Shown: positions 57,101 to 64,000 of the stretch, piece after piece
Layout of the letters: the number at the start of each line of letters is the position of its first letter
Numbering within the stretch: the first letter of the stretch is position 1
From: an uncultured Nitrospinaceae bacterium
Lineage (GTDB): Bacteria; UBA8248
Length of the DNA: 64,000 bases
Reading direction: 5' to 3'
Assembly: GCA_964005815.1 (NCBI GenBank)
Contig: CAXFSR010000017.1
Span: 1-64,000, forward strand
Position numbers: made by a program

Positions 57101-60100
57101 AAAGCTGATTTTATTACTGTTGCTGCAAAAACAGATTTTAACGCTGGGACTAAAGGTATCACTTACTTTATTGTACCAACTAATACAGATGGCTTCAGTA
57201 TTGGTCGTCATGAAAAAAAAATGGGAATGAAGGGCATATCTACATGTATTCTAAATTTTGAAAACGTTGCAATTCCTAAAGAAAACCAAATTGGAGAACT
57301 TAATAAAGGATTTAAATCTGCAATGATCGGATTTAATCAAATGCGTCCTGCAATAGGCGCGCGAGCTGTTGGTCTTGCTCAAGGGTGTTTCGATTATGCA
57401 AAAAACTACTCTAAGGAAAGAGAAGCTTTTGGTACTTCAATTTCTAATTTTCAGGCAATCCAATTTATGCTTGCAGATATGTTTATGCAAATTGAAGCAT
57501 CTCGACTTTTGGTGCATAAAGCAGCGAGTCTAGTGGACACAGGTCAAATAGGAAAAGAAAATGCTCGTTACTTTTCTACTGCAAAAACATTTGCTGCAGA
57601 TATGGCAATGAAAGTAGCTATAGATAGCATACAAATATTAGGAGGAGCTGGATATATGAAAGACCATCCACTAGAAAGATTCATGAGGGATGCAAAGCAA
57701 ATACAAATAGTAGAAGGAACAAGCCAAATACAGCGACTGATCATCGCAAGAAACCTTTTAGATTCATAAAAATAAATTATCAAACTTTTCAGAAAACAAC
57801 TGGGAAAAGAGTGAAAAAAACATTTTCTAAGAATATAATTGAAAGTTCACTTGTTGTTATAAGAGGTGGTGGTGATATCGCTTCTGGTATAGTTCAAAAA
57901 ATATTTCGTTCTGGTTTCCCAATAATTATTACAGAAACAGAAAATCCAACTATGGTCAGAAGAACTGTCTCCTTTGCTGAGTGTATATATTCTGGCCGAA
58001 CTGAAATTGAAGGGCTATTTTCAGAAATGGTTCAGGGAGATTCATTGACTGAAAAATTTAATTCTGCTCTTAGTTTATTAGAAAAGAATATAATCCCTGT
58101 TCTAGTCGACCCAGAGTGTAAAATAGTTAAACTCGCAAAACCCCAAATCTTAATAGATGCAATTCTTGCAAAAAAAAATCTTGGCACACACAAAAATAGT
58201 GCAAAGATTGTAATTGGAGTAGGACCAGGCTTTAATGCTGGTTCAGATTGTCATGCAGTGATAGAAACTGCAAGAGGACACGATATTGGTCGGATAATTT
58301 TCAGCGGGTTCGCCTCTGAGAATACTGGAGTACCCGGACCTATTGGAGGATATACAACCGAAAGACTTCTTCGTTCTCCTGCGAAAGGCAAATTTAAATC
58401 CATTAAAAAAATAGGGGACAAAGTATCTAAAGGAGACCTTGTAGCAAAAGTAGACGAACTGGAGATTTTTTCAGAGATACCTGGTGTTATTAGAGGATTA
58501 GTTAGGGACGATCTTTCAATTCCAAAAGGGTTTAAAGTTGGAGACATTGATCCCAGAGCAAAACCTGAACACTGTATGACTATTTCAGACAAATCAAGAA
58601 GTATTGCAGGAGGCGTTCTTGAAGCAATACTCATTTTACTCAACGAGAAAACAATCAAAAAGAACGGAGTCCAAAATTGACTATCGAAATCCGAGAGGAA
58701 ATCACAAAAAACGGGGTATATAAAATTGGCAGAAGTGAGATAAAAATCAATGAAAATATTGACAACCCTTACGTGCCTGATTCTCAGTTTTATCTACCCG
58801 TTGGAGATGATCTAGAAAAAACTGCTTGGGCCGTAAGCAAAGGACTTCCAGTAATTCTGATTGGAGAAACAGGAGTCGGGAAAACTCTTTTAGTCCGTCA
58901 CTTGGCTCAAATGACAAACAATGGATTTCGAAGAGTAAATTTGAATGGAATGACAACAGTAGATGAATTTGTAGGTAAACTGATGATTAACGAAAAAGGC
59001 ACTTATTGGGTCAATGGAATTCTTATAGATGCAATGGAATCAGGAGATTGGCTACTTATAGACGAAATAAACGCATGCCTTCCTGAAATTGCTTTTTGTC
59101 TTCATAGTCTCCTTGACGATGACAAAATGATAGTTTTAACAGAATACGATGGAAGAATAATTAAACCACATCCAAATTTTAGAGTTTTTGCAAGCATGAA
59201 TCCTAACGAAGATAGACGCTATGCAGGAACAAAAGCTCTCAATGAAGCTTTGTTAGACCGATTTCCAGTATCTATAAGAATGGGTTATCTTCCTTACGAA
59301 ATTGAAGTCGATGTTGTAATGAATCAAAGTGGAAATATGGACAAACAATTAGTTGGGAAAATGGTAAATGTTGCAAATGACGTCAGAGAGGCCATTGAAA
59401 ATGAAAAAATCTTTTGCACTTTTAGCACAAGAAGATTAATAGATTGGGCACGTATGTCCGAATCTTTTAGCGCTTCTGAATCAGCGATTTCTACAATTTA
59501 CGGCAAAATAAATGAATTCGATGCAAAAGTTATCGAAGACATAATTGACAATTACTTTTAAAAAATAAACCTATGGAAAAAAGAAGATTACGTTTAGAAA
59601 CCTTAGCACAGATAGTTTCTAAAAATTACGACCTCAACCTTGAATACGCGAACTCTGATTCACAAAATCTATCGAATTCAAAACAACAAGACATCCAAAT
59701 TGAAAAACCTGAAACATCCCTTAAGATCCTAAGTGGAAAAACAAATGAAAATCATTTCTTGAAATACCAAAAAGGTATGACCTTAATTCAAGCTGCTCAC
59801 TTAAGATTCAAAGAAAAGAAATGGCTAACTCAGATTTTATCTGACAACAAAGAAAAACCTGGGATTTTTCGTTTGTGGCATACATTGGATGATACTAGAT
59901 GCGAGAATCTTCTAACGTCCTTTCTTCCTGGAACAAAAAAGAATCTAATAGAGTTTATTAAACCTTCTATTGAATCTGCGAACTATTCTATAAAAACAGG
60001 AGAATTACCTCTTATTCAACAAATTCAACTAGGGATTTATCTAACAGGAGCAGTTTACATACGAGAAACAACTGAAAAAGATTTAGATCTTCAAACAATG

Positions 60101-63100: not shown

Positions 63101-64000
63101 AAGTAAGGTGCTTCTCACATATAGACATTTGCAGGAAAAAGGCTTTAGAAGAAAAGAACTTATAGAAAAAGTACATGCTCCTATCGGCCTAGATATAGGC
63201 GCAGATAGCCCAGGAGAAATTGCTGTTTCGATCGTTGCAGAATTAATTAAAGATAGAAGACTAGGTCAAGAATTAGCTCTAAAATCAATTCAATCTAAAC
63301 GAGTACCTTTCCCAAAAGAAAAGAAATAGAAGGTAATCCTGTAAAAAAATTAACGAAGTATAGATTCATGCTTTATGTCAGATAAAACCATCACTCAAAA
63401 AGGAGGATGCTATGACACAAAGAGATTTCCACATGGAAGATATGAAAAAGAGATATGCAAAATTCAGTGAAATGAAACTATCCAAACAAGCTTTTGTCGA
63501 CACACGTCTTCCCGAACACGAAAGAGATTTGTACAATGTGATTGGCAATGGAGTATCTGAAGATCCTGAACTAAAACCATCGATCGATACAGTTGAAGGG
63601 TTTAATATCCACTACGTTGGTGCCGAACCAGGAAAAGGAGCAGCGTTACACACACACACTACAGTCGAAGTATTTTTTGCTATGTCTGGAAAATGGTCGG
63701 TATACTGGGGAGAAAATGGAGAAAACAATATAGAACTTGATACCTTTGATATTATTTCAGTCCCTGAAGGAGTTATGCGAGGATTCAAAAATATCGGCGA
63801 CTCATATGCAAATTTGATGGCAATTCTAGGAGGAAACGACCCTGGAAAAATAGGTTGGGCAAAATCTGTTCTTGACCTTGCCGAGAAATCTGGATTGCGC
63901 CTTGATAGTTCCGGGAAAATCGTAGAACTAAATTCTACATAAAAATAGTCAAAGAAACTCTAATTAGCAGAGATAGAGGAAAAGATTTTTCGTGATTTTA

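Follow-up and report, generated by a model that had tools for sequence, protein, structure and literature searches.

The window, that is, the whole stretch of DNA analyzed, comprised 64,000 nt (positions 1 to 64000 of contig CAXFSR010000017.1) from a genome that is 97.18% complete. Five open reading frames (ORFs) follow one another there on the plus strand in the order yqeB, AAA+ ATPase, VWA protein, yqeC, and xdhC, with products of 289, 294, 584, 282, and 377 aa, respectively. The first two genes overlap by 4 nt, a gap of 11 nt separates the AAA+ gene from the VWA gene, the latter overlaps yqeC by 4 nt, and xdhC starts after a gap of 23 nt. A first-pass annotation had placed a five-gene operon at 57811..63329, with 4-nt overlaps or gaps of no more than 23 nt, and all of the ORFs were found at these positions. 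Its family assignments (YqeB, YqeC, AAA_5/AAA_3/CbbQ_C, CobT_C, and XdhC) were reproduced by profile searches. The features of the region are as follows.

56621..57769, plus strand, acyl-CoA dehydrogenase gene (Pfam Acyl-CoA_dh_N, _M, and _1)
57811..58680, plus strand, yqeB, selenium-dependent molybdenum cofactor maturation protein (TIGR03309, 365.8 bits; cut-off, 220)
58677..59561, plus strand, AAA+ ATPase of the CobS/CbbQ/NorQ type (AAA_5 and CbbQ_C), the putative motor (Pfam and PDB sequence search)
59573..61327, plus strand, CobT-like VWA/MIDAS protein of 584 aa, the putative adaptor (CobT_C, 1.6e-17; MIDAS residues)
59573..60262, plus strand, N-terminal helical domain of the adaptor, residues 1 to 230 (AlphaFold model)
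60272..60433, plus strand, acidic disordered linker of the adaptor, residues 234 to 287 (pLDDT below 50; Glu/Asp rich)
60440..61312, plus strand, extended MIDAS/VWA module of the adaptor, residues 290 to 580 (Foldseek)
61324..62172, plus strand, yqeC, selenium cofactor biosynthesis protein (TIGR03172, 167.2 bits; cut-off, 73.05)
62196..63329, plus strand, XdhC-family Moco insertion chaperone gene (XdhC_CoxI and XdhC_C)
63412..63942, plus strand, Cupin_2 gene (Cupin_2, 5.5e-07)

The acyl-CoA dehydrogenase gene lies 41 nt upstream of yqeB and is possibly a cotranscribed neighbor outside the system; many loci of the order have a homolog upstream of yqeB, with a distance that varies. The Cupin_2 gene, 82 nt 3' of xdhC and also present behind xdhC in loci L033, L257, and L259, is a neighbor conserved only inside the genus. 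A scan of positions 56300 to 64000 returned 17 promoter-like sites (23.1 expected) and 4 terminator-like sites (4.1 expected), both at chance level, and was uninformative about the operon boundaries. Marine metatranscriptome contigs from two runs of one sample matched parts of the operon at an identity of at least 95%, which does not in itself prove transcription, and they covered both overlapping junctions (58540 to 58821 and 61128 to 61381). Of the words sampled, one run contains 0.20 and the other 0.12, and operon parts without contig cover carry no meaning.

The outer genes of the operon belong to well-defined families. YqeB was 49 to 91% identical across 20 orthologs, with H254-C255 and the motif T257-I258-S259-D260-K261 invariant. 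YqeC also matched the Pfam YqeC family (2.3e-38). The XdhC protein contained both domains of its family, XdhC_CoxI in the N-domain (1.1e-24) and XdhC_C in the Rossmann domain (4.1e-38), and scored 339.2 bits against NF045664 (XdhC_rel_AOR), slightly below the cut-off of 350. Its usual role, assisting with sulfurated Moco, speaks against a selenium reading. A selD gene was found in the same genome (337.9 bits, with one in-frame TGA). The joint occurrence of SelD, YqeB, and YqeC within a single genome defines the selenium-cofactor trait, as set out in part of PMC9312934, and the genome analyzed here contains all three. The trait is treated in PMC2276186, PMC5322559, PMC9312934, and PMC11448449. 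A term search of six papers found nothing on AAA+, MoxR, von Willebrand, or CobS proteins, and our literature search returned no publication describing the AAA+/VWA pair of this operon. The Escherichia coli genome, included as a control, scored above the YqeB cut-off. We know of no AAA+/VWA pair of this sort in E. coli.

The AAA+ protein matched AAA_5 (98.1 bits, 5.8e-28) and CbbQ_C (39 bits, 9.2e-10), both above the cut-off, and also AAA_3 (7.2e-10). Its Walker A motif GETGVGKT (residues 63 to 70), Walker B residues D129-E130, N175, and R195 were invariant in 16 sequences. In a PDB sequence search, its best single-domain relatives were CobS (87.5 bits), CbbQ (80.5 bits), and NorQ (76.4 bits). 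With an AAA_5 core, a CbbQ_C-type lid, and intact catalytic residues, the protein is, as judged from its sequence, a MoxR-like ATPase of the CbbQ/NorQ/CobS branch. A gene for a VWA/MIDAS partner adjoins it 11 nt downstream, as in that branch.

This partner, the adaptor, matched CobT_C (1.6e-17) and VWA (3.5e-05) over residues 376 to 576. Its MIDAS residues (D394-x-S396-x-S398, T433, and D516) and a signature, NNWDEEH (residues 487 to 493), were invariant in 30 sequences; the signature occupies the position of NxDGEA in distant CobT-like relatives. The close full-length family is small, with 32 of 1.84 billion representatives at an E value of 1e-30 or less, and for representatives P0003, P0004, P0007, and P0011, no metagenome-contig locus above 56% identity was found. 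In the AlphaFold model, the N-terminal domain consists almost entirely of helices, with pLDDT values per block of 10 residues mostly from 74 to 94 and a dip to 53 at residues 31 to 40; it gave no Foldseek match. An HExxH motif was present in the N-terminal domain of 106 of 123 distant relatives, and IQAAH stands in its place here. The linker is variable in the alignment. The MIDAS/VWA module takes in a long helix (318 to 347) and strands (348 to 353), and its best Foldseek match was NorD in NorQD complexes (9qhd_G; E value, 7.2e-09; target TM score, 0.66; 298 columns); the MIDAS domains of Rea1/midasin (8ql1 and 6qt8) were among the further best matches.

By sequence, the pair is closest to CobS and CobT of CobNST (PDB 9ujv and 9uka; 87.5 and 42.3 bits, respectively). 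Like CobT, the adaptor has an N-domain, an acidic linker, and a C-terminal VWA domain, as described in part of a preprint (bioRxiv 10.64898/2026.10.09.757910). The two proteins might thus be read as the divergent CobS/CobT motor of an aerobic cobaltochelatase serving vitamin B12 synthesis. CobS and CobT are their nearest single-domain relatives in the PDB and, with TIGR01650 (CobS) and TIGR01651 (CobT), also their best NCBIfam matches, and several orthologs have been named CobS by JGI. However, the equivalog scores were 85.3 bits for TIGR01650 and 49.8 bits for TIGR01651, far under the cut-offs of 558.55 and 759.05. No match to PF02514 (CobN/Mg-chelatase H) was found in the 97.18% complete genome. 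The adaptor differs from the wider family in having NNWDEEH in place of NxDGEA and in lacking the HExxH-type motif, and the neighbors in both genomic contexts of the pair (see below) are molybdenum hydroxylase genes. Given the missing CobN and the low equivalog scores, we rejected a cobaltochelatase identity as extremely improbable, and the automatic annotation "cobaltochelatase CobS" is corrected for genomes without CobN.

The structural resemblance to NorD, together with the relationship of the ATPase to NorQ, suggests how such a pair may act. NorQ/NorD acts as a chaperone that inserts FeB into nitric oxide reductase; a pore finger and a remodeled linker allow the metal to enter the folded client, according to PMC13036017 (see also PMC9976466). 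The adaptor differs from NorD in being just 14 to 16% identical to it in the structural alignment and in having a different client; Pfam and NCBIfam searches found no nor genes in the window operon.

The first-pass annotation had likened the pair to CoxD/CoxE. In Oligotropha carboxidovorans, MgATP-dependent sulfuration of Mo in the aerobic Mo-Cu CO dehydrogenase requires CoxD (PMC4240915; see also PMC3471820), and in CoxD/CoxE/CoxF, too, AAA+, VWA, and XdhC-like proteins act after folding on an active site of the xanthine oxidase family (part of PMC4240915). By analogy, CoxD/CoxE/CoxF is the closest functional precedent. The comparison did not extend to family membership. The window ATPase is of the AAA_5/CbbQ_C type and not of the AAA_3 type, the adaptor carries CobT_C and gave no match to VWA_CoxE (PF05762) at an E value of 0.01 or less, and it is YqeB and YqeC that accompany the pair here; a copper site is not implied. 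A CoxD/CoxE-type pair proper is encoded elsewhere in the genome, on contig C63 (VWA_CoxE, 205 bits), following the sole genes for FAD and FeS subunits, and the CoxD-like ATPase of this genome shares just 24% identity with the window ATPase. We therefore rejected CoxD/CoxE membership and place the window proteins with the CobS/CbbQ/NorQ and CobT types.

The operon was followed across the small phylum labeled Nitrospinota, which comprises 51 species genomes, 44 from the order of the window genome and 7 from its sister order. The VWA protein was present in 48 of the 51 genomes and in 43 of the 44 of the window's order. In this order, 38 loci were compared, and 31 of them had the complete colinear set of five genes; the other 7 were cut by contig ends and agreed as far as they reach, so that none conflicted. 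The view that most genomes of the order keep the arrangement was thus borne out. The additional claim that it occurs nowhere outside the order held for CobT_C beside YqeC but not for the pair or the core: in the sister order, yqeB-AAA-VWA was found in five of seven genomes, with the order kept in all five loci and yqeC present but unlinked, and the pair also occurs in Anaerolineales. The constant neighbor of the pair in both orders is yqeB, not xdhC. In line with this, PMC11448449 reports that deleting yqeB in Clostridioides difficile reproduces the phenotype of selD and that deleting yqeC does not. Two 95% complete genomes of one genus (G048 and G049) were without the VWA protein, YqeB, and all MoCoBD_1 large subunits; the remaining 49 genomes all had large subunits and YqeB. 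The CoxE-type VWA protein was retained in G048 and G049, indicating that only the AAA+/CobT-like pair tracks the enzymes. The window lineage occurs in marine water columns and sponges.

In a few Anaerolineales, we found an orthologous pair, with the AAA+ protein 61 to 67% and the VWA protein 32 to 36% identical to the window proteins. Among the loci that take in the AAA gene, 24 in all, 22 have the pair directly behind the FAD-FeS-L1-L2 genes of a four-subunit enzyme; the two others have just 1,149 and 544 nt upstream. The yqeB and yqeC genes of these Anaerolineales sit together elsewhere in the genome. A YqeB match was found in all 15 Anaerolineales genomes with the pair that were tested (14 above the cut-off), and given a YqeB background of 55% (110 of 201 sampled Anaerolineales) and the kinship of the genomes, this co-occurrence gives moderate support at most. 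The VWA family was present in 2 of the 201 genomes, and 108 of the 110 YqeB-positive ones were without the pair, which is therefore an accessory and not the core of the YqeB/YqeC trait. The nearest split NdhM-like paralogs (50 to 53% identical, in 14 genomes) were also without the pair. Among 53 metagenome loci, 14 had the yqeB context, 25 had the structural-gene context, and 14 were too short to tell. No third context was found in these and 115 genome loci, and both classes involve molybdenum hydroxylases. As for generic CobT-like loci, YqeB, YqeC, and XdhC were found in 0 of 80, and XDH-family genes lay within 7 kb in 1 of 80, a locus that proved to be a member of the window pair's family. 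The other 79, from SAR86, Pelagibacteraceae-type, and other genomes (24 to 35% identity), were taken as a negative control, not as relatives. Because of the two independent contexts, the co-loss with YqeB and the large subunits, and the 79 control loci without such neighbors, the results supported a functional tie between the pair and XDH-family molybdenum hydroxylases.

A different client, or a regulatory or quality-control role such as disassembly or turnover of damaged enzyme, would make the pair a mere traveler with the hydroxylase genes. The clients of MoxR/VWA pairs are indeed very diverse, as seen in parts of PMC9976466, PMC13036017, PMC3893208, and PMC10585395, and the N-terminal domain of the adaptor has no recognized fold match. 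The restriction to two contexts, both with molybdenum hydroxylases, and the loss of the pair along with the enzymes nevertheless make this quite improbable.

Which enzymes might be served? The six XDH-family large subunits counted earlier in the genome were recovered as MoCoBD_1 proteins, none of them encoded on this contig. The Anaerolineales L1 subunit had its best match in 3HRD_A (233 bits; next, 164) and L2 in 3HRD_B (218.5 bits; next, 156), and one large subunit of the window genome matched 3hrd_A with 288.7 bits and 3hrd_B with 238.1 bits. 3HRD is the selenium-containing nicotinate dehydrogenase, with A and B being its split Mo subunits, and its Mo-Se site was reportedly described by Wagener et al. 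in 2009. The gene order and sizes of the Anaerolineales enzyme correspond to NdhF/S/L/M (PMC10331938). By these matches, the likely clients are relatives of nicotinate dehydrogenase.

A selenium-specific role of the pair in these hydroxylases is plausible. Known selenium-dependent hydroxylases come from anaerobes, and the oxic habitat of the lineage counts against the selenium reading; to our knowledge, no sequence motif separates Se-type from S-type hydroxylases. The pair could instead be a selenium-independent assembly or Moco-insertion chaperone that aids the loading of sulfurated Moco by XdhC or the docking of orphan large subunits on a few shared FAD and FeS subunits, the adjacency to yqeB then reflecting only a shared regulon for molybdenum hydroxylase maturation. 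Six large subunits in the genome face a single gene each for the FAD and the FeS subunit (sister-order genomes have 56 to 75 large-subunit matches), xdhC belongs to the operon, the Anaerolineales pair stands with structural genes and not with yqeB, and most YqeB-positive genomes are without the pair. Against this, it is yqeB and not xdhC that remains beside the pair across both orders, and YqeB accompanied it in every Anaerolineales genome tested. Subunit sharing is not a general reason for the pair, since the Anaerolineales enzyme comes with dedicated FAD and FeS subunits of its own, and in the window genome a CoxD/CoxE-type pair already stands behind the FAD and FeS genes. We regard a selenium-independent chaperone as possible, though rather unlikely. 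As for the proposed ATP-driven step in selenium insertion, its tie to XDH-family enzymes stood, and its selenium-specific part is inferred, with nearly all YqeB-positive Anaerolineales doing without the pair.

We lean, with moderate confidence, towards the reading that the AAA+ and VWA proteins form a motor and adaptor of the CobST/NorQD/CbbQO kind, working with YqeB in the maturation of XDH-family Mo hydroxylases of the nicotinate dehydrogenase-like branch. What was observed is the gene content, its conservation, the co-occurrence and joint loss, catalytic and MIDAS motifs that are intact, and a similar fold; on the physical contacts, the client, and the atom involved (Se or S), the picture is inferred as follows. 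The ATPase would assemble as a hexamer, with the extended MIDAS module of the adaptor docking on the ring and pore, and either the metal site of MIDAS or the adaptor's N-terminal domain would bind the client. ATP hydrolysis may then pull or twist the acidic linker, a movement that would open the folded large subunit or a cofactor-carrier complex and allow the buried Mo cofactor, which carries a labile terminal chalcogen, to be inserted or renewed. YqeB would be the nearest working partner, YqeC and XdhC would be further helpers, and the chalcogen would most likely be selenium, from SelD-made selenophosphate. The delivery of labile, non-selenocysteine selenium to molybdenum hydroxylases is called the least understood route of biological selenium use in PMC11448449. 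The pair is a testable candidate for how Mo enzymes receive this fragile selenium (or sulfur) atom and, with XDH-family enzymes as clients of a CobS-type motor, would extend the MoxR/VWA metal-insertion theme by a fifth class of client. It offers handles for experiments, namely an ATPase whose activity a point mutation can abolish and a MIDAS site expected to bind the client, and nature provides two arrangements, a compact one of the pair with YqeB/YqeC/XdhC and one of the pair with the four-subunit enzyme, which could be coexpressed.

In a more speculative and, in our view, unlikely variant, the pair would be an ATP-driven "selenium reactivase" that reopens assembled hydroxylases after loss of the Mo=Se ligand, with YqeB reinstalling selenium from selenophosphate. 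This likens the pair to the Rubisco activase CbbQO, of the same AAA+ branch. If true, it would account for the fixation of the motor in a lineage of the oxic ocean and sponges in which one maturation operon serves 4 to more than 70 large-subunit paralogs, and for its absence from anaerobes sharing the YqeB/YqeC trait.

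The five genes formed a compact operon on the plus strand at 57811-63329, as the first-pass annotation had described:

57811-58680, plus strand, yqeB (289 aa)
58677-59561, plus strand, AAA+ ATPase gene (294 aa)
59573-61327, plus strand, VWA protein gene, the adaptor (584 aa)
61324-62172, plus strand, yqeC (282 aa)
62196-63329, plus strand, xdhC (377 aa)

The successive junctions were -4, +11, -4 and +23 nt. A gap of 41 nt separated yqeB from the end of an upstream acyl-CoA dehydrogenase gene, and a cupin gene started 82 nt downstream of xdhC. These positions are already window coordinates; an earlier indication to subtract 32000 from them was wrong here, and 25811-31329 holds unrelated minus-strand genes. 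The family assignments were reproduced. YqeB scored 365.8 bits with TIGR03309 (cut-off, 220) and YqeC 167.2 bits with TIGR03172 (cut-off, 73), the ATPase matched AAA_5, AAA_3 and CbbQ_C, the adaptor matched CobT_C and VWA over residues 376-576, and the product of the fifth gene matched XdhC_CoxI and XdhC_C. Marine metatranscriptome contigs from two runs of one sample matched portions of the region with at least 95% identity, with pieces spanning the yqeB/AAA and VWA/yqeC junctions; this is weak evidence of expression because DNA can occur in such libraries. In an alignment of YqeB orthologues (A5), H254-C255 near the C terminus was invariant, as was the T257-I258-S259-D260-K261 that comes after it, and C255 is a candidate carrier of a persulfide- or perselenide-type intermediate.

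Conservation was examined in the genome library, where the lineage forms a phylum comprising just 51 species in two orders; related MAG records are labelled Nitrospinota, Nitrospinaceae or Tectomicrobia. The adaptor was present in 43/44 genomes of the window's order and in 5/7 of the second order. The order yqeB-AAA-VWA-yqeC-xdhC was colinear in 31 of 38 loci of the first order, and the remaining 7, broken off by contig ends, were consistent as far as they reached. In the second order, the yqeB-AAA-VWA core was present in 5/5 loci, with yqeC and xdhC not adjacent and yqeC located elsewhere in all five genomes. The ATPase was the most conserved component (63 to 76% identity), above YqeB (49 to 60%), the adaptor (37 to 57%) and YqeC (32 to 40%). 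YqeB and MoCoBD_1 large subunits occurred in the same 49 of 51 genomes. The other two, G048 and G049, which belong to one genus and are each 95% complete, lacked YqeB, the large subunits and the adaptor; an adaptor match was also missing from a third genome, G004, whose completeness is 67%. A CoxE-type VWA protein was present in 50/51 genomes, including G048 and G049. This pattern is suggestive that, of the two AAA+/VWA systems of the lineage, only the window's pair tracks the hydroxylases; it is not statistical, because it reflects essentially one loss event. In G003 and G014, the adaptor match fell in two overlapping frames near residues 385 to 395, as it did at loci L072 and L073, pointing to a frameshift or an assembly error or, alternatively, to a true split into N-domain and VWA proteins.

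Both proteins of the pair retained intact motifs. The invariant residues of the ATPase included the Walker A motif GETGVGKT, D129-E130 of Walker B, N175 and R195; those of the adaptor included the MIDAS residues D394, S396, S398, T433 and D516 and a family signature, NNWDEEH. By sequence, the nearest solved single-domain relatives of the ATPase were CobS (87.5 bits), CbbQ (80.5 bits) and NorQ (76.4 bits), and the AAA domains of midasin were also related; CobT was the only solved sequence relative of the adaptor (42.3 bits). The possibility that the pair is a cobaltochelatase CobS/CobT was rejected, with equivalog scores of 85 versus 559 and 50 versus 759, and CobN was absent from the 97%-complete genome of the window. 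Membership of CoxD/CoxE was rejected as well, and the CoxD/CoxE-like step suggested by the first-pass annotation holds only by analogy. The adaptor had no VWA_CoxE match, and contig C63 of the same genome carries another pair, of CoxD/CoxE type, whose ATPase is 24% identical to that of the window.

An AlphaFold model of the adaptor (mean pLDDT, 77.8; pTM, 0.48) predicted a helical N-domain (residues 1 to 230), a disordered acidic linker (234 to 287) and an extended VWA module (about 290 to 580). The predicted fold of this module was most like that of NorD in NorQD complexes and also resembled the MIDAS domain of Rea1/midasin. As described for NorQD in part of PMC13036017, the VWA domain inserts a finger into the pore, and a NorD linker needed in metal insertion is remodelled by the motor; for CobST, ATP is described as moving the VWA domain to the central pore (bioRxiv 10.64898/2026.10.09.757910, in part). 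The N-domain of 106/123 distant CobT-like relatives carried an HExxH motif, followed in the wider family (P0012 to P0150) by a conserved ED.RIE stretch. Within the adaptor family, HExxH was kept by some representatives (P0002, P0003) and lost in the window protein (N-domain, 59573-60262). Together, the two elements look like a relic zincin-type motif.

A second gene context was found in Anaerolineales. Among 1.84 billion representatives, the full-length adaptor family was small, with 32 matches at E<=1e-30; beyond it, the generic CobT-like family gave 5265 matches at E<=1e-3, in the VWA part only. A family-alignment search gave 72 loci, from the Nitrospinota-like lineage and, in 28 cases, from Anaerolineales/Chloroflexota MAGs. 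While the first-pass view that the arrangement is kept within the order held, its confinement to that order did not, given the core in the second order and the pair in Anaerolineales. An orthologous ATPase was present in all 24 Anaerolineales loci having DNA upstream of the adaptor gene, and yqeB, yqeC and xdhC were absent within 6 kb in all 28. In 22 of these 24 loci, the genes directly upstream of the pair encoded an FAD subunit, a [2Fe-2S] subunit and two proteins of about 436 and 336 aa that together make up a split large subunit; in the remaining two, the sequence reached only 1149 and 544 nt upstream. The best matches of the two Mo subunits were 3HRD_A (233 versus 164 bits for the next) and 3HRD_B (218.5 versus 156 bits), which in nicotinate dehydrogenase are the large and medium molybdopterin subunits. 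That enzyme was reportedly shown by Wagener et al. in 2009 to have a Mo=Se ligand. Gene order and sizes were like those of Eubacterium barkeri NdhF/NdhS/NdhL/NdhM, as given in part of PMC10331938. At five loci (L085, L088, L096, L104 and L107), the FAD-FeS-L1-L2-AAA-VWA block, with L1 and L2 the two Mo subunits, lay amid genes for aldehyde dehydrogenase, Zn-ADH, 2-hydroxyacid dehydrogenase, xylose-isomerase-like TIM barrel, GFO/IDH/MocA and transketolase-like proteins. This setting makes a sugar-derived aldehyde or acid, and not nicotinate, the probable substrate. Among 53 metagenome loci, 14 had the yqeB context (including the non-independent L257, identical to the window), 25 had the structural-gene context and 14 were not long enough to be assigned; a third context was not found.

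Generic CobT-like loci from other bacteria served as controls (n=80). An adjacent ATPase was present in 57/80, and YqeB, YqeC and XdhC in 0/80; XDH-family genes lay within 7 kb in one, an Anaerolineales member of the pair's own family. Of 201 sampled Anaerolineales genomes, 2 had a member of the adaptor family and 110 had YqeB, and 108 of these 110 lacked the pair, which shows that it is accessory to the YqeB trait. All 15 pair-carrying Anaerolineales genomes tested had a YqeB match (14 above the cut-off and 1 contig-end fragment), and yqeC adjoined yqeB in 5/5 tested for YqeC. This co-occurrence is moderate support at best for a selenium link, because the YqeB background is 55% and the genomes are related. 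Split-subunit orthologues were 77 to 92% identical among pair-linked loci; within the sample, such close orthologues were found only in a pair-carrying genome, and 14 other genomes had a split subunit 50 to 53% identical, without the pair.

The window's genome encodes six XDH-family large subunits, 30 to 39% identical to each other, on contigs C38, C42, C9 (two sites), C37 and C22 (L079 to L084). None of the six adjoined an FeS or FAD subunit gene or reached an NCBIfam equivalog cut-off; one scored 288.7 bits with 3hrd_A and 238.1 bits with 3hrd_B. The sole FAD-subunit and sole [2Fe-2S]-subunit genes lie together on C63 (L145:4927-8623), directly followed by the CoxD-like ATPase and VWA_CoxE protein genes, suggesting that a single electron-transfer module serves several of the orphan large subunits. 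SelD was encoded at C49:38431-39390 on the minus strand (L074; 337.9 bits), and its single in-frame TGA indicates that it is probably selenocysteine containing.

In the main texts of five papers, part of the YqeB/YqeC literature (PMC2276186, PMC5322559, PMC5029168, PMC9312934 and bioRxiv 10.1101/2025.04.24.650524), there was no relevant mention of an AAA+, MoxR, von Willebrand or CobS component. The same was true of CobT in the first three and of a relevant ATPase in PMC2276186, PMC9312934 and the preprint; "ATPase" in PMC9312934 referred to ABC-transporter and cation-transporting ATPases, and "aaa" in PMC5029168 to strain names. PMC11448449 had no relevant mention of an ATPase, a chaperone or XdhC. 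A Nitrospinota comparative-genomics paper (PMC10839748) contained no xanthine, selen, MoxR or coxL, and an excerpt of a sponge-symbiont paper (PMC8941161) contained no coxD or coxE. The CoxDEF paper was the only one found to bring together xanthine dehydrogenase, XdhC, AAA+ and von Willebrand.

The pair is a new, narrowly distributed form of the MoxR/VWA metal-centre maturation theme. The earlier interpretation was partly supported: the pair is linked to enzymes of the XDH family and, through its gene neighbours, to selenium-cofactor genes. Most likely, it is a client-specific remodelling motor maturing nicotinate-dehydrogenase-like molybdenum hydroxylases. Associations at the gene level and intact motifs are what the data show; hexamer formation, docking, the client and the chemistry are what we infer. 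A precedent is known in CoxD, CoxE and CoxF, described in part of PMC4240915 as acting on folded CO dehydrogenase in Mo sulfuration and Cu insertion. We favour the view that the pair would act where Moco with a labile chalcogen is installed or renewed, selenium being the more likely atom, because YqeB is its constant partner, SelD is encoded in the window's genome and, in selenium-dependent purine use by C. difficile, YqeB is described as being as necessary as SelD, with YqeC dispensable (PMC11448449, in part).

The number of large subunits differed between the orders. Genomes of the first order had 4 to 14 MoCoBD_1 large subunits each, and the sister order (G044 to G047 and G050) displayed a very large expansion, with at least 42 MoCoBD_1 proteins out of 60 to 79 candidates in the phylum-wide run and 75, 56 and 72 matches in G045, G046 and G047, respectively (genomes of 3.0 to 6.2 Mb). 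Many coxL-family genes per genome are described in sponge symbionts (PMC8941161, in part).
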